Shown in pieces: positions 5,578-36,109 of a stretch of DNA of 64,000 nt. A program made the position numbers and the translations under genes. Positions within the stretch are counted from its first letter, which is position 1; each line of letters begins with the position of its first letter. Source of the DNA: Escherichia phage HK3; the sequence record PP526765. One strand, given 5' to 3'. Below the pieces are notes generated by a model. It saw only the letters and a list, made by a program, of their open reading frames with translations. It was not told the origin of the DNA and ran no database searches.

Positions 5578-5918
5578 AAATTATGAAAATCAAAGAAATG
5601 AACATCAATATTGTCTTAGAAGAACGATGGGAGAACATCAAGAAGCCTGAAAATGGTCATAAGTTCCTCAACAAAATCTTAGTAGCAGCTAAAGAAGAAC
5701 TGACTGGCAAGGTTGCAGCAGCAATCACAATAAAGGTCTGTGTAAAAGGTCTTCCAGACAATCACCAATTTGCACTTGACGAGTTTAAAGAAAGCTTCTA
5801 CAATCCAAACAAACAGATGCTTGAAAGTAACTTTGCAGTATCTACAAGCATCGTTCATGACAGAAGCTTTATCCTTTACAAGAATATGAGAGGTGAGTCA
5901 TGCAAGCATATTGGATAG
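5571..5918 (+). CDS. hypothetical protein (115 aa)
   Basis: ORF track; overlaps previous stop (coupled). Confidence 0.5.
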   Translation: MVKIMKIKEMNINIVLEERWENIKKPENGHKFLNKILVAAKEELTGKVAAAITIKVCVKGLPDNHQFALDEFKESFYNPNKQMLESNFAVSTSIVHDRSFILYKNMRGESCKHIG

Positions 5919-6104: not shown

Positions 6105-8471
6105 ATGCGCATGGTAAACGACCACGCAGAAGTGATTAAGAGTTCAACTTCTTTAGAGACATCTCAAGCACAGATTACAATGACACCTGAAATGTTCAGC
6201 CTTCTGAGTTCTGGTGTATATACCTTTAAAGAGCGAGCAGTAATTCGTGAACTGTCATGTAACGCAGTAGATGCTCAGAAAGAAGCTGGAAAAGAGAACA
6301 TCCCGTTCCATGTGCATTTACCGACTCGTTTTGAGCCTTACTTTGAAGTTCGTGATTTTGGAACTGGATTGACTCATGATAAAGTTATGAGTTTGTATCT
6401 AAACTACGGGGCTTCTACAAAGAATGACTCTAATGACTACATTGGTGCAATGGGTATCGGCTCAAAATCCCCATTTGCAATTGCTCAGTCATTCACAGTG
6501 TCCAGTTATGTTGATGGTGTTGTTAATAAGTATTCTGTTTATCTTGAGAATGGTATTCCTCAAGTAACTAAGCTGACCACCAACCCAACAAAAGAGCCAA
6601 ATGGTTTAGCTGTACGTGTAGCAGTTGCTGACCATCGTATCTCAAAGTTCTTTGAAGAGGCTGGTCACGTATACTCATACTTTGCTGTAAAACCGGAAAG
6701 TAACATTGAGTATGACGATGTATTAGCAGATATGAATGTCATTGCCCGTGAAGAAGGTGTTTATGATGCCATGATTCATAAGCAAAGCTGGCGTTCTAGT
6801 GGTAACAGGACAGAGTTTAATGTAGTGATGGGTAACATTGCCTACCCTGTTAACATGGAAGCACTACTTGGTGATGATTTCTTTAAAGTCTTGCCAGAGT
6901 TTTTCCGTAGGAGCGTAGACCTTGTAAACATCTATATGCCTATTGGTTCAGTTGCTATTGCAGCTTCTCGTGAAGCATTGCAGATGAATGATACAACAAA
7001 AAATGTTATCATTGAGGCTACTAAAAAGATAACTGAAGCAATTACAAAGGATGTTATCAAGAAAGTTAACAGTCAACCCACACTCATGGATGCTGCACAG
7101 GCTTATGCTGAGTTACGTTTGAACTCACGAGAGATGTTTAATGCTGTGTGTCCAAAGCTAGAGTGGGGAGGTGTTAAGCTTGATTCTCTGGAAGAAGAAT
7201 TACTAAATATTCGTCGTGGAATTATCTATGCAGAAGACGGCTCAGTTATCTATGAACGTGATGGTAAAGGTAATATTAAGGTTGACAGGAACGGAAACAA
7301 CATCCCTAAAGTAGATTATCTTTATGACCCAGTTGCTTATGTCAAGTTCAACTCTTTAGAAAGTAAGATTCGTGCAACAGCACTTTCCTACACTCAAGAG
7401 GCAAGTATGTTCAATATCTTTGGCGCAATGCGTAAAAGCCAAATTGAACAGTTCTTGTTTGTTATCAATGACCGTCGCAATAAAAACGGTACTGAGAAGA
7501 CTGTAGGACGCAATCAAATCTTGCGTGGCGCATGTCGAGACTATGCCAGTGAGTCAAGTCTGTTTCACAGATACAATGGTATCGTCTTTGTATTCTCGAC
7601 TGAAAAAGAGTTAGACGACCTAATCAATCTGCACAAACTTGATAAAAGCTTGTTAAAGATTGTGAAGATGTCTGATAAGGAACATCATTATCAGCGTAAA
7701 GAAGCTGTAAGAGGTGTTGTAAAACTCTGGAAAGCTGTTCCAGCAGAAGGTGTAGCTTCCTATAAAGAGGTGTCAGAAGACTTAGACACAATTGAAGAGC
7801 CTCAACTTTATATCAAGGCGGTAGGTGATACTGTTGATGGTGAATGTTTTTGCTCGTCTCCAGAAGATGTAGCTAAGTCAGTTGCCAATGTCATTGAAAA
7901 GACAGTCTATGTTTTCCGAAAAGCAAATTGGAAAAAGATACCAGAAGACTGGATTGAAGTAGATGAGAAGCTCTTGAACGACAGCTTAACTGATGTTCAC
8001 TGGATTAATCATAACAGGTATATGACACGTATCTATATGAATGGTGTCCTAGACCTTACAAGCAGTTGGATTATTGCCAGAAACTTTACGTTCAATAACA
8101 GGAAGATTTCTCGTGGTTATTGTTATTCACGAGACACAAACAAAACTATCTTCTTAGAAGGTAATGAAGATGCTGTTGAGGCAATGTTTGGTAAAATCCA
8201 ATACGTTGCTGCACCGTTTGCATACACTTACACTATTAGTCGTTTGCAAACTTTGAAAGAGTGCCTTGACAATGATACAAAGCTGTACAAGAAAATTAAG
8301 AAAGCTGGTGACCGTATGGTCATTAAGGTGACAAACTATCTTTCAAAAAGAAAACAAGAAAACTTCTTGCTTTCTCATTTAGATTGGAATAAAGTGTCAC
8401 CCATCGAAGTGAGTAAGTTCTTAGGCTTTGATGTGAAGTGTGTTCCAGAAGGGACTACAATTTACGATTAA
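6105..8471 (+). CDS. rIIA: rIIA-like protein (GHKL-type ATPase fold)
   Basis: N-terminal region reads like T4 rIIA (..RAVIRELSCNAVDA.., RDFGTGL.., GIGSKSPF); 788 aa; AAGAGGAAAG Shine-Dalgarno. Confidence 0.75.
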   Translation: MRMVNDHAEVIKSSTSLETSQAQITMTPEMFSLLSSGVYTFKERAVIRELSCNAVDAQKEAGKENIPFHVHLPTRFEPYFEVRDFGTGLTHDKVMSLYLNYGASTKNDSNDYIGAMGIGSKSPFAIAQSFTVSSYVDGVVNKYSVYLENGIPQVTKLTTNPTKEPNGLAVRVAVADHRISKFFEEAGHVYSYFAVKPESNIEYDDVLADMNVIAREEGVYDAMIHKQSWRSSGNRTEFNVVMGNIAYPVNMEALLGDDFFKVLPEFFRRSVDLVNIYMPIGSVAIAASREALQMNDTTKNVIIEATKKITEAITKDVIKKVNSQPTLMDAAQAYAELRLNSREMFNAVCPKLEWGGVKLDSLEEELLNIRRGIIYAEDGSVIYERDGKGNIKVDRNGNNIPKVDYLYDPVAYVKFNSLESKIRATALSYTQEASMFNIFGAMRKSQIEQFLFVINDRRNKNGTEKTVGRNQILRGACRDYASESSLFHRYNGIVFVFSTEKELDDLINLHKLDKSLLKIVKMSDKEHHYQRKEAVRGVVKLWKAVPAEGVASYKEVSEDLDTIEEPQLYIKAVGDTVDGECFCSSPEDVAKSVANVIEKTVYVFRKANWKKIPEDWIEVDEKLLNDSLTDVHWINHNRYMTRIYMNGVLDLTSSWIIARNFTFNNRKISRGYCYSRDTNKTIFLEGNEDAVEAMFGKIQYVAAPFAYTYTISRLQTLKECLDNDTKLYKKIKKAGDRMVIKVTNYLSKRKQENFLLSHLDWNKVSPIEVSKFLGFDVKCVPEGTTIYD

Positions 8472-16423: not shown

Positions 16424-16696
16424 ATGTATACTACTAACAACGGTCGAACCTTAAACGTAACACTGCGCCACTATGTAAACGGTGTAATGCACTTCGAAGA
16501 TTTACAAGCTGAACAACATATTTTGGATTGGCAACTTGCAGGATTCCAAAAAACTGCTACCGGATACGGGAAAAAGATTCCAACTAGTTGGAAAGTATAC
16601 TACGAAGGCCGTTTGCGCAGAATTTATCAGGATGTTTACAGCAATAGCGCAAAAAGTTACATCATGGTAAAAGGTAAAAAATTACACTTAGTGTAA
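16424..16696 (+). CDS. array small ORF 6 (90 aa)
   Basis: type B cassette upstream. Confidence 0.5.
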   Translation: MYTTNNGRTLNVTLRHYVNGVMHFEDLQAEQHILDWQLAGFQKTATGYGKKIPTSWKVYYEGRLRRIYQDVYSNSAKSYIMVKGKKLHLV

Positions 16697-29259: not shown

Positions 29260-29272
29260 TTTTAAAAGGTGT

Positions 29273-29302
29273 TGACAGACTCTACAAAGTTGCTCTAAAG
29301 TC
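29273..29302 (+). promoter_or_regulatory. promoter TTGACA-N18-TAAAGT bracketed by inverted repeat GACAGACT / AGTCTGTC (candidate operator)
   Basis: read directly upstream of the vWA-domain gene. Confidence 0.45.
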
Positions 29303-29338
29303 TGTCACATCAAACAAAATGAGAGAAGAGAGTAAAAT

Positions 29339-30754
29339 ATGAGCAAGTTATTTAAACATGCGCACCTTCATGCAGGTCGAACTGAAAATGGTGCTGTAAA
29401 CCATACTTCATCAATGTCTGCTCTGGTAGACTTCTACAAAGCCGCTGGTTCAAGCCGTAGCAATGTAGAAATCTTACCAGACCTGTTCTACAAAGCTTTG
29501 CGTGAGGATGTTGATGTTGCAGTTCGTATTTTACTGCATATGCGAGATGTACGAGAAGGTATGGGCGAGCGTAAAGCTTTCCGAACTGTTTTGCTTCAAG
29601 CGATTGAAGATAAGGTTTTAGAACCTACACAGGTTCTTCGCATTATGGATAAGATTGCAGAACTTGGTCGTTTTGATGACTTCAAAATCTTTGTAGGTAC
29701 TCGTTTTGAGACAGACGCCTTCAAACATTTAGAAGCAGCATTACTAGACCCTGCAACAGCAGGTTTAGCAGCTAAGTGGTTGCCACGAGTAAAACCACGC
29801 CACAAACAGTTTGTAAAACGTTTCTGCAAGTTTGCAAACTTAAGTGAGAAGGAGTATCGCACACTGTTGTCTGCACTATCTGATACGGTTGAGCAAAAAA
29901 TCTCTGCTAATGAGTTTGGTAAGATTGACTACAGCAAGATTCCTTCACTAGCTGCTGCACGTTACCAAAAACTCTTTAACCGTAAAGATGGTGAACGTTA
30001 CAAAGCTTACATCGAGTCGCTCTCAAAGGGTGAGGCTAAGATTAATGCTGGTGCTGTTTACCCATACGATGTGATTAAATCTATTAAGTATGGTAATGCA
30101 GATGTTGCTAATGAGCAGTGGAAAGCACTTCCAAACTGGATGGCAGAAGGTGAAAACATCTTGTGTATGACTGATGTTTCAAGCTCAATGTCTTGGGTGA
30201 ATCTTGGTTCAATCACTGCCCTTGATATTGGTGTATCACTTGCTTTGTATGTAGCAGAACGCAATACTGGTTGCTTTAAAGATGAGTTAATGGTTTACTC
30301 AACAAACCCTCACTTCATTGAACTGAGTGGTGATTTACGAAACCGTCATCGTCAGGTGATGCGTCACGTTGAATATGGCTCAACTAACTTACAAGCAGCT
30401 TTTGACCGTATTCTTGAAATAGGTAAGAGAAACAACTTGACTCAGAAAGATATGCCAAGTAAGCTTATTATCTTCTCTGATATGGAGTTTAATCAGGTTG
30501 ATGGTGCAAATGGTCATACAAACTTTGAAGCAATTCAGAGTAAGTACAAAAAAGCCGGATACGAAATGCCACAACTAGTATTCTGGTACTTAGCAAACCG
30601 TAATGGTACTTGCGAAGTATCTGTTAAGGATAATGGTGTAGCAATGGTATCAGGGTTCTCTCCAGCCACTTTAAAAGCTCTACTTGGTGGTGAGAAGTTT
30701 GACCCAATCAGCGTAATGCTCAAAGCAGTAATGATTGACCGTTATATCTGGTAA
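29339..30754 (+). CDS. vWA-domain protein with MIDAS motif; candidate Ro60/TROVE-like (Rsr-like) RNA-binding protein
   Basis: C-terminal vWA signature ILCMTDVSSSMS (DxSxS); about 470 aa with helical N-terminal region; sits directly upstream of the tRNA/ncRNA cluster; TROVE assignment is inference. Confidence 0.4.
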   Translation: MSKLFKHAHLHAGRTENGAVNHTSSMSALVDFYKAAGSSRSNVEILPDLFYKALREDVDVAVRILLHMRDVREGMGERKAFRTVLLQAIEDKVLEPTQVLRIMDKIAELGRFDDFKIFVGTRFETDAFKHLEAALLDPATAGLAAKWLPRVKPRHKQFVKRFCKFANLSEKEYRTLLSALSDTVEQKISANEFGKIDYSKIPSLAAARYQKLFNRKDGERYKAYIESLSKGEAKINAGAVYPYDVIKSIKYGNADVANEQWKALPNWMAEGENILCMTDVSSSMSWVNLGSITALDIGVSLALYVAERNTGCFKDELMVYSTNPHFIELSGDLRNRHRQVMRHVEYGSTNLQAAFDRILEIGKRNNLTQKDMPSKLIIFSDMEFNQVDGANGHTNFEAIQSKYKKAGYEMPQLVFWYLANRNGTCEVSVKDNGVAMVSGFSPATLKALLGGEKFDPISVMLKAVMIDRYIW

Positions 30755-30772
30755 AAAGTTTTAAAAAGGGTA

Positions 30773-30801
30773 TTGACAATGTGTTTGATACCCTTTAATA
30801 T
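30773..30801 (+). promoter_or_regulatory. promoter TTGACA-N17-TAATAT with flanking inverted repeat GGGTAT / ATACCC
   Basis: read directly. Confidence 0.5.
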
Positions 30802-30863
30802 GTTCTACATAGAAACGAGATGAGAGCTTTTCTAAGATACTGAAAAATATTTTAAAAAAGTTC

Positions 30864-30893
30864 TTGACAACCACTAAAAAATAATGTTAAAGT
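30864..30893 (+). promoter_or_regulatory. promoter TTGACA-N18-TAAAGT for the tRNA cluster
   Basis: about 25 nt upstream of the first tRNA; flanking inverted repeat ACCACT / AGTGGT. Confidence 0.45.
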
Positions 30894-30919
30894 GGTTACA
30901 TAGAGTTTGAAAAGTTTAT

Positions 30920-30996
30920 CTCTGTTTAGCTCAGCTTGGTAGAGCGTTCCGTTTGGGGCGGTAAGGCCGGAGGTTCAAGTCCTCCAACAGAGACCA
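30920..30996 (+). tRNA. tRNA-Pro (anticodon UGG)
   Basis: 7-bp acceptor CTCTGTT/AACAGAG, D-stem GCTC/GAGC, T-arm GGAGG-TTCAAGT-CCTCC, encoded CCA. Confidence 0.6.
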
Positions 30997-31003
30997 AATT
31001 AAT

Positions 31004-31081
31004 GTTCCAGTAGACAAAATGGTATAGTCACCACTCTTTCAAAGTGGATATTTGAGGGTTCAAATCCCTTCTGGAACGCCA
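31004..31081 (+). tRNA. tRNA-Glu (anticodon UUC)
   Basis: perfect acceptor GTTCCAG/CTGGAAC, anticodon stem CCACT/AGTGG, loop CTTTCAA, T-loop TTCAAAT, CCA. Confidence 0.6.
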
Positions 31082-31087
31082 GTTTTG

Positions 31088-31162
31088 ACAGAAGACCAAT
31101 TACAGCAAACTTAATCTTATTCATCTGAAGGTAAATCGGACAAAGAAGAGATTTGGTCTGGT
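31088..31162 (+). ncRNA. structured spacer element a (conserved 5' CAGAAGACCAATTACAGCAA, 3' TTGGTCTGG)
   Basis: 7-bp long-range stem AGACCAA/TTGGTCT; one of four sibling elements. Confidence 0.45.
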
Positions 31163-31172
31163 CATTAAGAAT

Positions 31173-31249
31173 TGCGGGTATAGAGAAAGGGCGTCTCACA
31201 TGTCTCATTAGCATGGTATCGGCAGGTTCGACTCCTGCACCCGCCTCCA
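31173..31249 (+). tRNA. tRNA with CAU anticodon (elongator Met or Ile-lysidine type)
   Basis: loop CTCATTA, D-stem GAGA/TCTC, T-arm GCAGG-TTCGACT-CCTGC, CCA; mismatch at acceptor pair 1:72. Confidence 0.5.
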
Positions 31250-31255
31250 AATTTA

Positions 31256-31320
31256 CAGAAGACCGTTTACAGCAATATTTATTAAATTTTTAGCGGAAAA
31301 ATTGAAAGATACGGTCTGGT
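31256..31320 (+). ncRNA. structured spacer element b (5' CAGAAGACCGTTTACAGCAA, 3' ACGGTCTGG)
   Basis: stem AGACCGT/ACGGTCT; GT/AC replaces the AA/TT of elements a and c. Confidence 0.45.
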
Positions 31321-31333
31321 AATACTAAACATG

Positions 31334-31410
31334 GTTAGGAAGCACATAAGGTATGTGCGGTCGCCTGTTAAGCGAATGGCACAGGGTTCGAATCCCTGAC
31401 TAACCGCCAA
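31334..31410 (+). tRNA. tRNA-Asn (anticodon GUU)
   Basis: D-stem GCAC/GTGC, loop CTGTTAA, T-arm CAGGG-TTCGAAT-CCCTG, CCA. Confidence 0.55.
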
Positions 31411-31481
31411 ATTTAGGAGAGAAGCGATTGCTCACCGATTTGTAAGGTGCAAGTCCTTAGCCTGAATAGAATAATAAAATG

Positions 31482-31569
31482 TGTCGTTATCCCGTAGATG
31501 GTAGCGGTGGGGACTGTAAATCCCTTGTCATTGAGACTCGGTAGGTTCGACTCCTACACGGCACACCAA
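31482..31569 (+). tRNA. tRNA-Tyr (anticodon GUA), long variable arm
   Basis: acceptor GTGTCGT/ACGGCAC, anticodon stem GGGGA/TCCCT, loop CTGTAAA, 88 nt, T-loop TTCGACT, CCA. Confidence 0.6.
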
Positions 31570-31630
31570 TTTTGAGAGGGCTATTTAGCCCCTCCCTTAA
31601 AGAGTTCTTACGAGTACCCTTTAAAGGAGC

Positions 31631-31704
31631 AGAAGACCAAATACAGCAAGTTACTTAAAATTTCAAGCCAATTCAATTTTGAAAAATTTAAAACTTGGTC
31701 TGGC
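31631..31704 (+). ncRNA. structured spacer element c (5' CAGAAGACCAAATACAGCAA, 3' TTGGTCTGG)
   Basis: stem AGACCAA/TTGGTCT. Confidence 0.45.
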
Positions 31705-31717
31705 TCAACAAATTTAC

Positions 31718-31848
31718 AGAAGACCGTTTACAGCAAAACTTAAACAATCTATTTCTCGGTAAAGAAAAGGTGAAGGTTCGATTCCTTCACTCGGCAGATG
31801 TCGAGTTGGTGTAATGGTAGCACTTAAGATGATAAACAACGGTCTGGT
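31718..31848 (+). ncRNA. structured element d with circularly permuted tRNA-like module (candidate YrlA-like Y RNA)
   Basis: order: 5' stem strand AGACCGT (31722) - T-arm GAAGG-TTCGATT-CCTTC (31773-31789) - acceptor-like hairpin ACTCGGC-AGAT-GTCGAGT (31790-31807) - D-arm GTGT-AATGGTA-GCAC (31810-31824) - 3' stem strand ACGGTCT (31840-31846). Confidence 0.5.
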
Positions 31849-31849
31849 A

Positions 31850-31985
31850 ATTATCTTTGCAGTAGCTTATGTGGCTAATTATATCGTCCCATGAGTGCCG
31901 ATGAATTTCCTTAGCATGATTCTAGATTAGCTTAATAGGAAATGACTCTACAGACCCTTTAGCAAGGTCTGCGTAGGTTACTGCA
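31850..31985 (+). ncRNA. element enclosed by a perfect 16-bp inverted repeat (AATTATCTTTGCAGTA ... TACTGCAAAGATAATT) around 104 nt
   Basis: arms at 31850-31865 and 31970-31985; interior has further hairpins (AGACC...GGTCT); no ORF. Confidence 0.5.
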
Positions 31986-31999
31986 AAGATAATTTAATA

Positions 32000-32075
32000 G
32001 AAGTGTAGCAGAATGGTGATGCGGCAGACTTTTAATCTGATAGGTGATGGGTTCGAATCCCTCCACTTCTACCAA
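32000..32075 (+). tRNA. tRNA-Lys (anticodon UUU)
   Basis: perfect acceptor AGAAGTG/CACTTCT, loop CTTTTAA, T-loop TTCGAAT, CCA; T-stem only 3 clean pairs. Confidence 0.5.
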
Positions 32076-32079
32076 TATG

Positions 32080-32156
32080 GTTCAGTCGCAGATAAGGTAA
32101 TGCAGGGGTCTCATAAGCCCTATGAATGTGGGTTCGATTCCCATCTGAGCCTCCAA
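32080..32156 (+). tRNA. initiator-like tRNA-fMet (anticodon CAU)
   Basis: anticodon stem-loop GGGCTCATAACCC with three G:C pairs closing the loop; T-arm GTGGG-TTCGATT-CCCAT; CCA. Confidence 0.55.
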
Positions 32157-32158
32157 TG

Positions 32159-32234
32159 CTGTGAAAGCACATATGGATGTGCATTCGGCTGATAACCGAA
32201 AGGAAGAAGGTTCGAATCCTTCTCACAGTACCAA
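32159..32234 (+). tRNA. tRNA-Ile (anticodon GAU)
   Basis: D-stem GCAC/GTGC, anticodon stem TTCGG/CCGAA, loop CTGATAA, T-arm GAAGG-TTCGAAT-CCTTC, CCA. Confidence 0.65.
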
Positions 32235-32249
32235 TTTCAATAAAGTTGT

Positions 32250-32278
32250 TGACATTGAGATGTGACCACTTTATAGTA
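32250..32278 (+). promoter_or_regulatory. internal promoter TTGACA-N17-TATAGT inside the tRNA cluster
   Basis: read directly. Confidence 0.55.
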
Positions 32279-32481
32279 ACCTTAGTTTTCGTTGCGTAGC
32301 GTCTATTTTGCAAATTTAAAATAAATGCAAACGACAATGTTTTTCTGGCAGTAGCTTGATAGGCTAAACACCAGTGAGGTCTTCCAATCCCTCATCAAAG
32401 AATTTGGCGTACTAGCCCACGGTATGATTAATAAGGTGGGCATCTTTAAGGGTTTTTTAAGAGAGTCTTTAAAGATTAATG

Positions 32482-32558
32482 CACCCTTAGTTCAACTGGA
32501 CAGAACAAATGACTTCTAATCATTAGGTTACAGGTTCGAATCCTGTAGGGTGTGCCAA
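32482..32558 (+). tRNA. tRNA-Arg (anticodon UCU)
   Basis: D-stem GTTC/GAAC, anticodon stem AATGA/TCATT, loop CTTCTAA, T-arm ACAGG-TTCGAAT-CCTGT, CCA. Confidence 0.65.
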
Positions 32559-32700
32559 ATAGTTAGCAGATTGCTTAGACGACCTTATCGGGTCTCCGTG
32601 TAGGGAGGTGGTCTGTATCTCATGTTTTCCAGAACATGTAAATAATCTGAGAAGGGGCTTTACAGTGTTGAGATAATACGGTAAGCTTCGAATTATAGTA

Positions 32701-32783
32701 TGGGACGATGTTAAGACTCTAAGGCATGAGCAACGGCTTCCAACACCGTTTCAAAGGGATTCAACTCCTCCGTCCCATGCCAA
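32701..32783 (+). tRNA. atypical tRNA-like gene (possible anticodon CCA, Trp); irregular D and T arms
   Basis: perfect 7-bp acceptor ATGGGAC/GTCCCAT plus G-CCA, but T-stem has only 3 clean pairs and the D-region is 26 nt. Confidence 0.35.
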
Positions 32784-32796
32784 AGTCTTATTAGGG

Positions 32797-32886
32797 GTAG
32801 GTAGCGGCTAATGGTAGCCAAACTGTCTTGAAAACAGTTGCCACTGTAGAGATACGGTGAGGGTTCGACTCCTTTACTTACCGCCT
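32797..32886 (+). tRNA. tRNA-Ser (anticodon UGA), long variable arm
   Basis: anticodon stem ACTGT/ACAGT, loop CTTGAAA, 20-nt variable arm, T-loop TTCGACT; CCA not fully encoded. Confidence 0.55.
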
Positions 32887-33040
32887 AATAAGATTTAAAG
32901 CCAAGCTTCATTCGGATGTTGCTTTGGTATCCCTCGTGTATTGTCGTACACACTGATAAAGCACCTAGTAGGTGTCACGGAGAAGAGATAATATCAAGCT
33001 CTCCAAAGGTTCTAGTCACCGGATTAAACAAGACTATGCA

Positions 33041-33063
33041 AAGACCTGTTTAGGTCTTTTTAG
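33041..33063 (+). terminator. short hairpin AAGACC-TGTTTA-GGTCTT followed by TTTTT inside the tRNA cluster
   Basis: read directly; may instead be a processing signal. Confidence 0.35.
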
Positions 33064-33141
33064 AGGGCTTCTAAGGTTATTACAGCTTGTTGTGGAACCT
33101 TGTTGCTTAGGTTCTTAGAAGTTCTCTAAAAAGATTTAATG

Positions 33142-33218
33142 CACCTATAGCCCAACTGGTAGAGGCAGCAGACTTAGAATCTGCTCAGTGTGAGTTCGAA
33201 TCTCTCTAGGTGTACCAA
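33142..33218 (+). tRNA. tRNA with anticodon UAG (Leu by anticodon; short variable arm)
   Basis: 6-bp anticodon stem AGCAGA/TCTGCT, loop CTTAGAA, T-loop TTCGAAT, CCA; 77 nt. Confidence 0.45.
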
Positions 33219-33225
33219 ATTAATG

Positions 33226-33301
33226 CAGGTGTAGCAAAATGGTTATGCGGCTGACTCTTAATCAGTAAGACGATGGTTTCAATTCCCTCCACCTGTACCA
33301 G
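33226..33301 (+). tRNA. tRNA-Lys (anticodon CUU)
   Basis: loop CTCTTAA; T-arm paralogous to the Lys-UUU gene; CCA. Confidence 0.45.
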
Positions 33302-33307
33302 ACATTG

Positions 33308-33383
33308 GGGATGTAGTTTACATGGTTAAAACATAAGTTTTGCAAACTTAAGTACAGGGTTCAATTCCCTGCTTCTCCACCAA
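33308..33383 (+). tRNA. tRNA-Ala (anticodon UGC)
   Basis: G3:U70 pair in acceptor stem (Ala identity), D-stem GTTT/AAAC, anticodon stem TAAGT/ACTTA, loop TTTGCAA, CCA. Confidence 0.7.
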
Positions 33384-33389
33384 TTAGTG

Positions 33390-33464
33390 CATCCATAGTT
33401 TAAACGGGAAAATTACAGTCTTCCAAACTGAGGTTGAGGGTTCGATTCCCTCTGGATGCTCCAA
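33390..33464 (+). tRNA. tRNA-Gly (anticodon UCC)
   Basis: perfect acceptor GCATCCA/TGGATGC, loop CTTCCAA, T-arm GAGGG-TTCGATT-CCCTC, CCA. Confidence 0.65.
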
Positions 33465-33470
33465 ATAATG

Positions 33471-33547
33471 CTGCTTTCGTATAATTGGCTATTACACATC
33501 CCTTGTAAGGATGGAAATGCAGGTTCGAGTCCTGTGAGCAGCACCAA
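33471..33547 (+). tRNA. tRNA-Thr (anticodon UGU)
   Basis: anticodon stem CATCC/GGATG, loop CTTGTAA, T-loop TTCGAGT, CCA. Confidence 0.6.
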
Positions 33548-33551
33548 TTCA

Positions 33552-33637
33552 GAGGTCAAGTGAAAGACCGCTGGTGTCAACTGAAGACCGTAACAAATTC
33601 CACGGAGTTGAGTTAGCGGCACAACTTCAGACCTCTT
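33552..33637 (+). ncRNA. structured spacer element closed by AGAGGTC / GACCTCT stem, containing a GAAGACCGT motif
   Basis: 7-bp inverted termini; interior shares GAAGACCGT with elements a-d. Confidence 0.35.
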
Positions 33638-33642
33638 TCATA

Positions 33643-33717
33643 CTCGCTTAGTTTATATGGTAAAACACCACCCTTACAAGATGAAGAAAAAGGTTCAAGT
33701 CCTTTAGTGAGTACCAT
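33643..33717 (+). tRNA. tRNA-Val (anticodon UAC), weak anticodon stem
   Basis: D-stem GTTT/AAAC, loop CTTACAA, perfect T-arm AAAGG-TTCAAGT-CCTTT, CCA. Confidence 0.4.
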
Positions 33718-33718
33718 G

Positions 33719-33796
33719 TTCCAATATCCCAATTGGCAGAGGATGCAAGCTCAAACCTTGTACTAGTGACGGTTCGAATCCGTCTTGGAACACCAA
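33719..33796 (+). tRNA. tRNA with anticodon CAA (Leu by anticodon; short variable arm)
   Basis: perfect acceptor GTTCCAA/TTGGAAC, anticodon stem GCAAG/CTTGT, loop CTCAAAC, T-arm GACGG-TTCGAAT-CCGTC, CCA. Confidence 0.5.
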
Positions 33797-33910
33797 TTTT
33801 GGGAGAGCACTATGAGTGATAAGTCAATAGCAAAAAAGTTTAGAGCGTCATACCTAAACAGACGTAAAAACAAAGATTGTGAAAAACTGTATGGTGTTCT
33901 TGTAGGTAAG

Positions 33911-33986
33911 CAGGATTAGTTCAAATGGATAGAGCAGCAGTCTACGAAGCTGTTAATAGGGGTTCGAATCCCTTATCCTGCGCCAA
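33911..33986 (+). tRNA. tRNA-Arg (anticodon ACG)
   Basis: perfect acceptor GCAGGAT/ATCCTGC, loop CTACGAA, T-loop TTCGAAT, CCA. Confidence 0.65.
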
Positions 33987-34004
33987 TTTTAAGAGGCTAT
34001 TTAG

Positions 34005-34562
34005 ATGAGATATTTGAAGTATGCTTCATGGATTTTCCTAGCTTTGTTAGACCCATTGGCAGCAACCTTAGCAGTTATCTTAGCACCTTTTGTAGTTCCA
34101 TTCTACAGTGAGAAGAAAGGGCACTTACCTTTCGGCTTCAGATGGATGGAGACATATGACAACCCAATTGATGGTGATAAAGGTCATGTTGAACGATGGG
34201 CTAAGATTAGAAAGATTGGTAAGCTTGGTGTCTATATGCAGAGAGTCGGTTGGCTCTGGAGAAACAAAGCTTATAACTTCTCTTACCATGTGTTAGGAAG
34301 AGATGTAAAAGATGTTACTAAGTGGAAAGGTAATATCAACGTAAGCTCTGACCCTGAAGATAATCAGACAGGTTATCTCCTAATGTGGAACAGTAATGCT
34401 TGGGGATTATTCGCTTTTATCCCATCAATTAAAGTCTTTGGTAAACAATTCTACTGGAGAATTTATATTGGGTGGAAACTAAAAAGTGTTGTCCCAGAAG
34501 AAAGAGCATTCTCAAGGGAAAGAGTTATGTTGGCATTCTTTATTCATCCACTGAGAAAGTAA
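34005..34562 (+). CDS. hydrophobic protein encoded inside the tRNA cluster (185 aa)
   Basis: ORF track; AAGAGG Shine-Dalgarno 9 nt upstream; hydrophobic N-terminal helix. Confidence 0.55.
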   Translation: MRYLKYASWIFLALLDPLAATLAVILAPFVVPFYSEKKGHLPFGFRWMETYDNPIDGDKGHVERWAKIRKIGKLGVYMQRVGWLWRNKAYNFSYHVLGRDVKDVTKWKGNINVSSDPEDNQTGYLLMWNSNAWGLFAFIPSIKVFGKQFYWRIYIGWKLKSVVPEERAFSRERVMLAFFIHPLRK

Positions 34563-34570
34563 AGATTTAA

Positions 34571-34646
34571 AGGGGATTAGTTTACAAGGTTAAAACCTCG
34601 GTCTTTGAAATCGAAGAAGTTGGTTCAATTCCAACATCCCCCGCCA
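34571..34646 (+). tRNA. tRNA-Gln (anticodon UUG)
   Basis: D-stem GTTT/AAAC, anticodon stem TCGGT/ATCGA, loop CTTTGAA, perfect T-arm GTTGG-TTCAATT-CCAAC, CCA; A1:C72 mismatch. Confidence 0.6.
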
Positions 34647-34648
34647 AT

Positions 34649-34727
34649 GCTCCATTACTCCAATTGGCAGAGAGGCCAGACTTAAAATCTGTGTTATGTA
34701 TCGGTTCGAATCCGATATGGAGTACCA
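34649..34727 (+). tRNA. tRNA with anticodon UAA (Leu by anticodon; 7-nt variable region)
   Basis: acceptor GCTCCAT/ATGGAGT, loop CTTAAAA, T-arm ATCGG-TTCGAAT-CCGAT, CCA. Confidence 0.45.
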
Positions 34728-34732
34728 AATTT

Positions 34733-34808
34733 AGCGGTATAGCATAACTGGCAATGCAACAGTCTCTGAAGCTGTCTTATTAAGGTTCAAATCCTTATGC
34801 CGCTGCCA
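34733..34808 (+). tRNA. tRNA-Gln (anticodon CUG)
   Basis: D-stem GCAT/ATGC, anticodon stem ACAGT/GCTGT, loop CTCTGAA, T-arm TAAGG-TTCAAAT-CCTTA, CCA. Confidence 0.65.
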
Positions 34809-34839
34809 CTTCTAAGGATTCTTACGAGAGTCCTTAAAT

Positions 34840-34915
34840 GTGGCCTTATCATAAACGGTAATGACCCATGCTGTGAACATGGTCTATACGGGTTCAAATC
34901 CCGTAGGTCACCCCA
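34840..34915 (+). tRNA. tRNA-His (anticodon GUG)
   Basis: D-stem TCAT/ATGA, perfect anticodon stem CCATG/CATGG, loop CTGTGAA, T-arm ACGGG-TTCAAAT-CCCGT, C73, CCA. Confidence 0.65.
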
Positions 34916-34920
34916 ATTTA

Positions 34921-34997
34921 TAGTCCAAGTAGCTTATATGGTTAAAGCGCGTGTCTGAAAAACATGAGAAGAGGGTTCAAATCCCACTGGATTACCA
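34921..34997 (+). tRNA. tRNA-Phe (anticodon GAA)
   Basis: anticodon stem CGTGT/ACATG, loop CTGAAAA, T-loop TTCAAAT; acceptor register uncertain by 1 nt. Confidence 0.5.
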
Positions 34998-35013
34998 ATT
35001 TCAAAGGTGCTTA

Positions 35014-35748
35014 ATGAAAGAGATGACAGAACAAGGTAAGGAGATTTTTAATCTCTTAAAAACTGGTAAAGGGTTTTCTAACCCCCTTATTACTGGTGCA
35101 GCAGTTCTCGGTGGAACCGTAGCTGCCTCTACATCACTTGTAAGCTCTATTAGCTCTGTAACAGACCCTACAATAAAGGATAAACTTATTGCTGCTGGAC
35201 TTACAACAGTTCTGCTTAACAGCTTTACAACGAGTCTGACAAGCACTACAGCAACTACTAAGACCCTAACAGACTATGGTCAAAAATCTATTGATGAGTT
35301 TTCATCACGTATGCAGGTAGCAAAGGGATACTCCAATGTTATGGGTGCAGTAGGAGAACAAGTTGGTTGTACACCATTTAGTGGTATTATGGGTGTTGCT
35401 ACAGAGTATGGTCAAAAAGCTATGGATACAATTAACAGCACACTAGATGGCGTTAATGATGTATTAAGCGACTTACAGGATGCTATTGATAAAGGTCTTA
35501 ATACTATTTCTGATTTAGCTAACCAAGCTGTTAGTAAGATTAATGAAGGTATCTCAAAGATTACAGCTTATGCAGATGAAGTTGTGCAGATGATTGAAGA
35601 AGAAGCTGCCCTTATTGCAGAGTACCTTAAAACGAATATCAATGGGTTCTTAGCAGGTATCTTACCAGACTGGTTTGATGATGCTTGTAAAACTGGTGTG
35701 ATTGACACTATTGCAACACCAGAAATGAAGAACGCATTACAGAAATAA
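35014..35748 (+). CDS. Ser/Thr-rich hypothetical protein (about 244 aa)
   Basis: ATG at 35014 after AAAGGTG; track ORF 34951..35748 would overlap the tRNA-Phe gene. Confidence 0.5.
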   Translation: MKEMTEQGKEIFNLLKTGKGFSNPLITGAAVLGGTVAASTSLVSSISSVTDPTIKDKLIAAGLTTVLLNSFTTSLTSTTATTKTLTDYGQKSIDEFSSRMQVAKGYSNVMGAVGEQVGCTPFSGIMGVATEYGQKAMDTINSTLDGVNDVLSDLQDAIDKGLNTISDLANQAVSKINEGISKITAYADEVVQMIEEEAALIAEYLKTNINGFLAGILPDWFDDACKTGVIDTIATPEMKNALQK

Positions 35749-35749
35749 C

Positions 35750-35842
35750 GGAAGATTAACCCTAAAAGGTAAGGGAGCAGTTTGCTAAACTGCCAGTAGC
35801 TGAGAAATCGGTGTACCAGTTCAAGTCTGGTATCTTCCTCCA
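35750..35842 (+). tRNA. tRNA-Ser (anticodon GCU), long variable arm
   Basis: acceptor GGAAGAT/ATCTTCC, perfect anticodon stem GCAGT/ACTGC, loop TTGCTAA, 21-nt variable arm, T-arm ACCAG-TTCAAGT-CTGGT, CCA. Confidence 0.65.
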
Positions 35843-35846
35843 ATTT

Positions 35847-35922
35847 GAATCCGTGACAGAAATGGCTATGTACCTGTCTGCAAAACAGGTTTATAAGGGT
35901 TCGAGTCCCTTCGGATTCTCCA
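35847..35922 (+). tRNA. tRNA-Cys (anticodon GCA)
   Basis: perfect acceptor GAATCCG/CGGATTC, anticodon stem CCTGT/ACAGG, loop CTGCAAA, T-arm AAGGG-TTCGAGT-CCCTT, CCA. Confidence 0.7.
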
Positions 35923-36084: not shown

Positions 36085-36109
36085 GACGGTCTCTGTACCG
36101 TCTTTTTTA
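36085..36109 (+). terminator. rho-independent terminator
   Basis: GACGGT-CTCTGT-ACCGTC hairpin plus TTTTTT. Confidence 0.6.

Follow-up and report, generated by a model that had tools for sequence, protein, structure and literature searches.

A candidate Ro60–Y RNA-like locus in Escherichia phage HK3: a Ro60-fold protein gene and handle RNAs in the tRNA array, with relatives in other phages

Ro60–Y RNA particles occur in animals, in about 5% of bacteria and in a few phages, and their function is poorly understood. We describe here a locus of Escherichia phage HK3 (sequence record PP526765; the 64,000-nucleotide stretch that was analysed is referred to as the window) in which the gene of a Ro60-like protein of 471 amino acids (29339..30754, + strand, an open reading frame (ORF) running from ATG to TAA) is followed by an array of 25 tRNA genes (30920–35922, + strand throughout, identified with ARAGORN). 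Four small elements, which we call handle RNAs a–d, start 332–960 nt downstream of the stop codon of the gene and on the same strand, and fill, leaving gaps of 3–12 nt, the stretch after tRNA-Tyr as well as the spacers among tRNA-Glu, tRNA-Met and tRNA-Asn. A megablast search with 29339–32000 matched 259 phage records, mostly at 95–99% identity, and these are FelixO1-like myoviruses of the genus Felixounavirus with Escherichia, Salmonella, Shigella and Citrobacter as hosts.

The protein has an N-terminal alpha-helical TROVE-like domain of about 270 amino acids and a C-terminal vWA domain. The MIDAS residues (D279-x-S281-x-S283, T349 and D381, MIDAS being the metal ion-dependent adhesion site) are invariant in an alignment of 63 homologues (A1), as is a basic N-terminal motif, R69-D70-x-R72-x-G74-x-G76-E77-R78. 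Pfam matches were obtained to DUF2828 (residues 172–264, 102.6 bits against a cut-off of 29) and DUF7788 (residues 275–455, 148.6 bits against a cut-off of 27.1, 2e-43), with a weak match to VWA_2, and phrog_850 ('RNA-binding protein') matched over the full length (8e-184). The TROVE profile (PF05731) did not match the window protein at E ≤ 1 or any of the 63 family members at E ≤ 10, and Pfam vWA_Ro60 matched 11 of the 63, weakly. Searches of PDB sequences with phmmer and hmmsearch returned nothing useful, the profile giving only E = 2 to the Ro60 of phage phiLo.

An AlphaFold2 model built from the same 63-sequence alignment (predicted local distance difference test (pLDDT) 90.3, predicted template modelling score (pTM) 0.89) was compared with the PDB using Foldseek, and ranks 1–10 were taken exclusively by Ro60 proteins (E 2e-8 to 5e-7, 510–550 columns, TMq at most 0.67), including those from Xenopus (2i91/1yvp), human (9nfa/9nep), the Thermus phage phiLo (9kop/9l5y) and D. 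radiodurans (2nvo). Below these came isolated vWA domains with E > 1e-3, and the full-length fold match was confined to Ro60. In the predicted fold, as in Ro60, an alpha-helical repeat ring precedes the vWA domain, and on this model the protein has a Ro60-type fold (helical ring plus vWA/MIDAS). An earlier, sequence-only reading of this DNA had proposed a 471-amino acid protein ending in a vWA domain with a MIDAS motif and having the Ro60/Rsr architecture of TROVE plus vWA. The ORF and the MIDAS were as described, and structure prediction gave the Ro60-like fold expected of the N-terminal domain; profile searches found the vWA part (DUF7788, and VWA_2 weakly) and no TROVE match. Only the fold comparison worked, and the Ro60 architecture is right at the level of fold, though the TROVE profile is blind to this protein.

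This sequence-divergent Ro60-fold family is common in phages, with more than 2800 clusters and 709 GenBank phage records, amongst which the commonest names are Escherichia, Mycobacterium, Salmonella, Vibrio, Listeria, Staphylococcus, Campylobacter, Enterococcus, Bacillus and Aeromonas phages. Records of cluster L mycobacteriophages already label it 'Ro-like RNA binding protein', and a homologue with 29% identity is found in P100-like Listeria phages.

Repeat search, pattern and fold were used to delimit the four handle RNAs, all on the + strand: a (31086..31164, between tRNA-Glu and tRNA-Met), b (31253..31322, between tRNA-Met and tRNA-Asn), c (31627..31706) and d (31714..31850). The 19-nt pattern AGAAGACCNNNTACAGCAA has exactly four + strand occurrences in the window (31090, 31257, 31631 and 31718). 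When three mismatches were allowed there were five matches against 1.0 expected, a number reached in none of 100 shuffles, and an independent repeat search returned the four copies of a–d as one family (D8). Each element folds with its ends paired, the 5' end being complementary to a downstream ..GGTCTG, and this gives an inner helix of 7–8 bp in which AGACC(A/G)(A/U)(U) is paired with ..GGUCU and is directly followed on the 3' side by an unpaired G. The A–U and G–C pairs which close this helix are invariant. CAGCAA lies on the 5' strand, beginning at position 11 from the first helix base, as part of a single-stranded (W)U(W)CAGCAA motif, three nucleotides past the 5' helix strand, which all four elements and the family consensus contain. 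We refer to this combination as the handle. In a, AGACCAA (31093–31099) pairs with UUGGUCU (31153–31159), the unpaired G is at 31160, CAGCAA is at 31103–31108 and a variable hairpin lies inside; in b, AGACCGU (31260–31266) pairs with ACGGUCU (31311–31317) and CAGCAA is at 31270–31275; in c, AGACCAA (31634–31640) pairs with UUGGUCU (31695–31701) and CAGCAA is at 31644–31649; and in d, AGACCGUU (31721–31728) pairs with AACGGUCU (31838–31845) and CAGCAA is at 31731–31736. Beyond a 5' AGA bulge there is an outer helix of 4 bp which is compensated between the siblings (it is UGAC/GUCA in a and GAGC/GCUC in c, while b and d share UUAC/GUAA).

These observations support the description of a–d as Y-RNA-like in layout, with an end stem, an adjacent motif on the 5' strand and a variable module in between. 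The sequence-only reading had already pointed to four sibling elements with conserved termini on this strand between tRNA genes; its coordinates were right to within 1–3 nt, and the termini held in common are the end helix, the 3' G and CAGCAA. Elements a–c have no tRNA features, and none of a–d was called as a tRNA by ARAGORN or by Rfam RF00005, for which only the T-arm of d gave a match (14.9 bits).

Three structural readings of the elements were considered and set aside. Reading the helix and the 3' G as a mimic of an acceptor stem and discriminator was rejected as the Felixounavirus copies extend into the outer helix, and a kink-turn reading of the internal loop (5' AGA / 3' G) was rejected since the tandem G–A pairs are out of register. 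The outer helix is also no general feature, since at least 4 bp were found in 44 of 106 elements against 31.3±4.2 in swapped controls, and because this enrichment is only modest we report it for Felixounavirus only.

We also built a covariance model, R1, from 68 cores of non-Felixounavirus origin with the variable interior replaced by 30 N, and searched the whole window with it on both strands and unfiltered. The top three matches were, in order, b, a and c, with 29.2, 27.4 and 19.2 bits and E-values of 2.8e-4, 7e-4 and 0.048. The fourth match, at 16 bits (E 0.25), lies at 16625–16670 (+ strand) inside the ORF 16424–16696, where the sequence reads AGGAUGU-UUA-CAGCAAU..ACAUCAU-G with one mismatch, and is probably due to chance.

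A possible fifth member or related RNA of uncertain status, recognised by its fold, follows d at 31853..31992 (+ strand). It is 140 nt long with a 19-bp terminal stem and folds with −47.9 kcal/mol (z −5.3, none of 200 shuffles being as stable); its 5' part is tRNA-like, and it contains a hairpin, CAGACC-CUUUAGCAA-GGUCUG (31951–31971), with closing pairs as in a–d and part of the loop motif. The region is variable and indel-prone amongst Felixounaviruses, and it was not called by R1 in the whole-window search.

The interior of d resembles a tRNA whose parts have been permuted. Within the handle, a 5-bp stem like that of an anticodon arm (CUUAA 31739–31743 / UUAAG 31824–31828) encloses, in order, a V-like hairpin (31748–31770), a T-arm (GAAGG-UUCGAUU-CCUUC, 31772–31788), a closed 7-bp acceptor-like hairpin (ACUCGGC-AGAU-GUCGAGU, 31789–31806) and a D-arm with GG (GUGU-AAUGGUA-GCAC, 31809–31823), all identified by folding of the + strand (−35.3 kcal/mol, z −2.4 for the whole of d). 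This V, T, closed acceptor hairpin, D order is that of bacterial YrlA, and the tRNA-like module which the sequence-only reading had seen in one sibling, with a stem in place of the anticodon arm, was recovered here. When d was re-permuted to the normal tRNA order and given an artificial anticodon loop, ARAGORN called a tRNA in two of three trials.

The same module recurs in other phages. A T-arm, closed 7-bp acceptor hairpin and D-arm were found inside handle RNAs of Felixounavirus, Suspvirus, Mooglevirus, L006, L022 (locus numbers refer to the comparative set described below) and the mycobacteriophage Rumpelstiltskin, and the same order was seen in Klebsiella phage FBKp34 and in L084, with a canonical D-arm (GCUCAGCCUGGUAGAGC); L072 has two. 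Overall the V, T, acceptor, D order is present in 11 handle RNAs of seven sequence types from Ounavirinae, Stephanstirmvirinae, a cluster L mycobacteriophage and metagenomic phages, with a further RNA (L025, at 8696) in which the T-arm is present and the acceptor and D parts are ambiguous. RNAalifold analysis of the 11 tRNA-mimic RNAs recovered the handle and the T-arm with compensatory changes in 14 of 17 consensus pairs, and the acceptor hairpin is likewise compensated (ACACGU-UACG-GCGUGU in SUSP2/Sf14 against the HK3 hairpin given above). Here the cargo varies in size between 33 and 254 nt.

The wider distribution of the handle was examined in a comparative set of 80 viral loci (922 kb), in which L001–L005 are Felixounavirus, L006 is 48% identical and the others are 39–45% identical. 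In many of these a tRNA cluster lies directly downstream or upstream of the gene on the same strand, and some also have a transfer-messenger RNA (tmRNA) gene; about half lack any tRNA gene within 6 kb. A strict scan, requiring AG-N8-CAGCA and a 3' complement of at least 6 bp which ends in CU and is followed by G, gave 96 matches on the gene strand and one on the opposite strand, with about 2 (0–4) in 20 shuffles. These matches come from 43 of the 80 loci; 78 of them lie no further than 1 kb from the gene, and the gene itself contains none. Allowing a U–A first pair raised the number of loci to about 55 (adding L008, L013, L018, L020, L039, L055, L056, L066 and L080), and the consensus of the family handle is A/U-G-R-N4-WUW-CAGCAA ... 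N4-Y-C-U/A-G. When the 5' motif was sought by sequence without pairing, the gene strand had 103 occurrences and the opposite strand 15; a 3' partner was found for 87 of the 103, compared with a mean of 3.8 when the downstream sequence was shuffled.

Positions which the scan left unconstrained are conserved as well (R at position 3 in 96%, Y at position 5 in 95%, U at position 9 in 94% and A at position 16 in 90%, together with W at position 10 and an A or U immediately before the helix). Five of the seven helix pairs have double changes (145 cells) covering all four Watson–Crick types, a count which is descriptive because the scan required pairing; the sequence of the handle helix varies freely while pairing is kept. 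Up to seven handle RNAs were found per locus, with a cargo of 15 to 230 nt. In one case (L036, 5734–5834) a handle helix with CAGCAA surrounds a complete tRNA-Thr (5753–5824, called by ARAGORN), so a handle's cargo can be a genuine tRNA.

Vibrio, Klebsiella, Listeria and Mycobacterium are among the hosts of the handle-bearing phages. In L006 there are four elements of the a–d design with other helices (AGAGCAC/GUGCUCU, AGAGCAGU/ACUGCUCU and AGGACAC/GUGUCCU), one of them with a T-arm. In Rumpelstiltskin three copies of a variant handle, UGG..../....CCA-G, lie directly downstream of the 'Ro-like' gene, the middle copy being a permuted tRNA mimic, with a terminator after them. Three handle RNAs lie between promoter and gene in Listeria phage LMSP-25, 74–340 nt upstream of the gene. 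The R1 model found members in a Klebsiella-phage-like contig, where they lie downstream of the gene, and in Vibrio phage phi-pp2 it found a 36.2-bit member (E 4e-6) inside the tRNA array and a weaker one over the start codon of the gene. Amongst bacterial and metagenome-assembled genome contigs with a homologue (L088–L167) a handle was present in 16 of 80 (23 forward and four reverse matches).

Other RNA-related features were noted around the Ro60-like genes of these loci. In LMSP-25 (L082) the gene has a ROOL RNA (2428–2979, 88.5 bits, E 6e-17, just below the gathering threshold) some 1 kb upstream and, downstream, a gene for an RtcB-type 'tRNA splicing ligase' (6808–8019), an arrangement which echoes the rsr–yrl–rtcBA operons of bacteria. 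Phage tmRNA genes lie a few kb away on the same strand in five metagenomic phages (L023, L026, L028, L033 and L046), and another has a group I intron a few kb downstream (L019, 11696–11922, 71.5 bits).

In 16 loci the Ro60-like gene is preceded by a handle, often in a minimal form of 33–41 nt, which stops 11–18 nt short of the start codon and whose terminal G leads straight into the Shine–Dalgarno sequence GGAG or AAGGA. The placing of a mini-handle on the Shine–Dalgarno sequence suggests that in these phages the Ro60-like protein is, in addition, a repressor of its own translation, acting through a ligand mimic, and this autoregulation predicts a translational operator. The window has no mini-handle upstream of the gene; all that was seen there was an inverted repeat lying across the promoter, without CAGCAA. 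We note that the leaders of the gene in L075, L080 and L098 have hairpins by the Shine–Dalgarno sequence with CCGCAA (AGGUUAA-GUU-CCGCAA..UUAACCUG), and therefore the motif tolerates variants which our scans missed.

The inverted repeat, GACAGACT..AGTCTGTC (29274–29306, + strand), has the AGAC/GUCU-G closure of the handle and could be a DNA operator or a degenerate handle. It overlaps a sigma-70-like promoter before the gene (TTGACA-18-TAAAGT, 29272..29301, + strand; 10 of 12 matches in a consensus scan), whose function is inferred. By the same kind of consensus match, tandem sigma-70-like promoters (30773..30893, + strand) head the tRNA and small-RNA array, with TTGACA-17-TAATAT at 30773–30801 and TTGACA-18-TAAAGT at 30864–30893, and a terminator-like hairpin (36085–36102) closes it. 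Further into the array, at 32249–32480 (+ strand), some 190 nt of structured non-coding sequence lie between a strong promoter-like site (TTGACA-17-TATAGT) and tRNA-Arg, with tRNA-like fragments and weak tmRNA-type Rfam matches (E 0.01–0.09). There are also two non-tRNA spacers, 31411–31480 and 31569–31626 (+ strand), one containing a T-arm-like AAGGTGCAAGTCCTT and the other a GC-rich hairpin, GAGAGGGCTATTTAGCCCCTCCC, where relatives such as Sf14 have tRNA-Asp; ARAGORN found no tRNA-Asp in the window.

Taking the protein and the RNAs together, we consider it likely that the HK3 locus encodes both halves of a phage ribonucleoprotein analogous to the Ro60–Y RNA particle, and the pairing of protein and handle is probably a widespread viral RNA–protein particle. 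The array would be transcribed with its tRNAs from the strong predicted promoters at 30773 and 30864, and the spacer RNAs a–d would be released by tRNA processing enzymes. The Ro60-like protein would then bind the handle, chiefly at the conserved 5' strand, as Ro60 binds Y RNA, leaving the variable inner modules to act as adaptors or decoys. As a YrlA-type tRNA mimic without a free CCA end, d might recruit or titrate host factors that recognise tRNA, for example nucleases, modification enzymes or PNPase-type exonucleases. Minimal handles on the Shine–Dalgarno sequence in other phages would serve in repression of the protein's own translation, an operator of this kind being absent from the HK3 window. 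The biological output would probably be counter-defence or protection of the phage RNA pool. The probable orthologue in the Felixounavirus Bas63, gp130, is reported to counter the Ppl defence system; a role in host RNA quality control or tRNA repair, which the sequence-only reading had raised, is speculation.

A more ambitious proposal, which we regard as possible rather than probable, is that these RNAs form a large and hitherto unrecognised, phage-wide modular class of non-coding RNA (ncRNA) which the Ro60-like protein employs as adaptors or decoys against host nucleases and RNA- or tRNA-directed defences from the first minutes of infection, with repression of its own mRNA by way of a minimal handle. 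A universal protein-binding handle might then carry swappable cargo (short hairpins, YrlA-type tRNA mimics, whole tRNAs and structured RNAs of 150–250 nt). In at least one Listeria phage the protein is packaged in virions. More immediately, the handle offers a concrete candidate RNA ligand for a protein linked to anti-defence (Ppl) by a genetic screen, and handle RNAs would explain conserved 'spacers' of phage tRNA clusters which are now unannotated or mislabelled as pseudo-tRNAs. The independent tRNA mimics on a Ro60-type platform also suggest that tethering tRNA-like modules to the ring is a recurrent solution.

Several observations weigh against a particle of this kind. By sequence the protein is not a TROVE member, and covariance searches with Rfam 15 models at E ≤ 10, in a 5.5-kb and a 296-nt search, found no YrlA or Y_RNA on a–d (weak Dicty_Class_I matches on a and b, with E of 4–5, were treated as chance). 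The GNCGAA/GGUCCGA Ro-binding motif does not occur in a–d, which have CAGCAA in its place. Thus of the comparison with YrlA drawn in the sequence-only reading, the co-occurrence on one strand and the V, T, acceptor, D layout of d stand, and membership by Rfam model and GNCGAA motif does not. It should be noted that d fits the handle pattern by scan and was not recovered whole by R1, because its long (90-nt) insert is penalised, and that the strongest member in phi-pp2 is 7 kb from the gene. Within the flanks covered, there was no handle in about 25–30% of the viral loci nor in most Clostridia-type genome contigs, and another RNA variant, or none, may accompany that branch. The rules of the scan were drawn from part of the same data, and the strand asymmetry, the shuffles and the held-out model R1 mitigate this circularity without removing it. 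The connection with Bas63 gp130 is drawn from the genus and the position of the gene, and we infer the expression and processing of the RNAs in Felixounavirus, and their binding by the protein.

We have considered whether the handles might act in cis, as signals for the processing or stability of the tRNA operon or as leaders and trailers of neighbouring genes, with no specific relation to the Ro60-like protein and found near its gene merely because both sit in phage 'RNA regions'. The position of elements between tRNA genes with 3–12 nt spacers in the window, L006, L022, L025 and phi-pp2, the whole tRNA-Thr surrounded in L036 as if by a leader–trailer helix, and the U-rich sequence after many copies are all compatible with this; however, in about half of the loci with handle RNAs there is no tRNA gene within 6 kb and the RNAs still flank the Ro60-like gene, most of the handles in the strict scan (the 78 within 1 kb) keep close to it, and in the 16 loci with operator-like copies they abut its own Shine–Dalgarno sequence. 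The single-stranded motif is conserved from enterobacterial to mycobacterial phages with this protein as the only conserved neighbour, which points to one trans-acting reader, and we judge the cis-acting explanation to be unlikely.

Slightly less likely again is a genuine conserved ncRNA family whose partner is some other molecule, with the Ro60-like protein acting through its vWA/MIDAS on a protein or DNA target, of which Ppl is an example, and with a host factor binding the RNAs or the RNAs acting by base pairing. Ro60 has the same vWA domain and binds RNA through its ring, and the full-length fold of the HK3 protein matches Ro60 alone; the mini-handles on the ribosome binding site of the gene fit self-regulation through a ligand mimic, and gene and RNAs are co-inherited across phyla. 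We strongly disfavour the suggestion that the elements are functionless, as decayed or rearranged tRNA genes and recombination or homing-endonuclease repeats. Several GenBank records do label 'tRNA-OTHER' or 'tRNA-pseudo' here, HNH endonuclease genes are inserted in some relatives, d has tRNA arms and close relatives differ by indels in the region, but a–c are without tRNA features, helices are kept by compensatory changes both in the window (the outer helices) and between lineages, the strand asymmetry is 96 to 1, and the motif persists to phages of hosts as distant as Listeria and Mycobacterium. A phage particle of Ro60-like protein and handle RNAs therefore remains our preferred reading.

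Among the closest known systems is that of Rsr with YrlA/YrlB (Salmonella, Mycobacterium and others; Chen et al. 2013, 2014; RF02553), in which a 5' motif, GNCGAAN0-1G, is followed by V, T, AS (the acceptor-like hairpin) and D (Chen 2014, PMC4201824). Both have a Ro60-fold gene beside several small RNAs on the same strand, RNA ends which form a stem, a conserved motif on the 5' strand near the 5' end, and one RNA per genome with V, T, a closed acceptor-like hairpin and D, with no free CCA end. All of a–d lie within 4 kb of the Ro60-like gene on its strand, as for YrlA, and the complete tRNA-like domain (V, T, AS and D with a closed acceptor) is found in the window in d only. In contrast to Rsr, the phage protein is DUF2828 plus DUF7788 and not TROVE, and about 60 amino acids shorter, and in contrast to YrlA the handle has CAGCAA at a fixed spacing to an A–U/G–C-closed 7-bp helix in place of GNCGAAN0-1G, the HK3 RNAs are embedded in a phage tRNA array, and the RF02553 model has no match. 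Elsewhere in the family, YrlA gave no match at its gathering threshold (69 bits) in 12 distant loci and none at E ≤ 1 in the Listeria phage and mycobacteriophage loci. Rfam found nothing but tRNAs in the window at the gathering threshold, and across the window and 14 related loci a single group I intron and a single ROOL RNA were all that it added to the tRNAs. The locus is a variant of the Ro60–Y RNA kind and not a YrlA member. Metazoan Ro60–Y RNA (PDB 1YVP) is more distant, with 12–14% protein sequence identity and no match to the RF00019 model; the bulged-C helix GGUCCGA/UUGACC is missing from the phage RNAs and a requirement for La-binding oligo-U is not evident.

Amongst phages, the Ro60 of the Thermus phage phiLo binds two phage-encoded Y-like RNAs, Yrl1 and Yrl2 (PMC12135203; PDB 9KOP, 9L5Y), and ET08 has been named as a cluster C phage with a TROVE-type Ro (Chen 2014, PMC4201824). 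phiLo, the cluster C mycobacteriophages, CcrColossus and Bacillus phage G have a TROVE-recognisable Ro60 and RNAs with a CGAA motif, whereas the present family is separate by sequence, has its own RNA handle and is far more widespread in phages.

Two reports are closer to the HK3 protein itself. Bas63 gp130 was found to resemble Ro60 structurally and to counter the Ppl defence system in a PhageMaP preprint, which speculates that some annotated tRNA genes might be Y RNAs (PMC11482910). Bas63 is likewise a Felixounavirus with the gene directly upstream of tRNAs; our candidates differ from those of the preprint in being spacer elements between tRNAs which are defined by a conserved handle. CKA15_055 of a Listeria phage is Rsr-like by HHpred and present in virions, and three very abundant unannotated RNAs occur within 2 kb upstream of its gene (PMC12282133). 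Bas63 gp130 and CKA15_055 very probably belong to the same family as the HK3 protein. The one region for which that paper gives coordinates is probably that of the ROOL RNA, and ROOL is probably also the most abundant RNA of CKA15. In LMSP-25, a P100-like phage of the same genus, our candidates are the three handle RNAs upstream of the gene. Both papers guessed that the nearby RNAs might be Y RNAs and left the RNAs and their motif undefined, and we found no description of the handle motif in the literature on DUF2828, Ro-like proteins, Felixounavirus transcriptomes or phage Y RNAs. The likeness of the protein to Ro60 has thus already been published, and what appears to be new is the RNA family with its handle, its breadth, the tRNA mimics and the operator copies.

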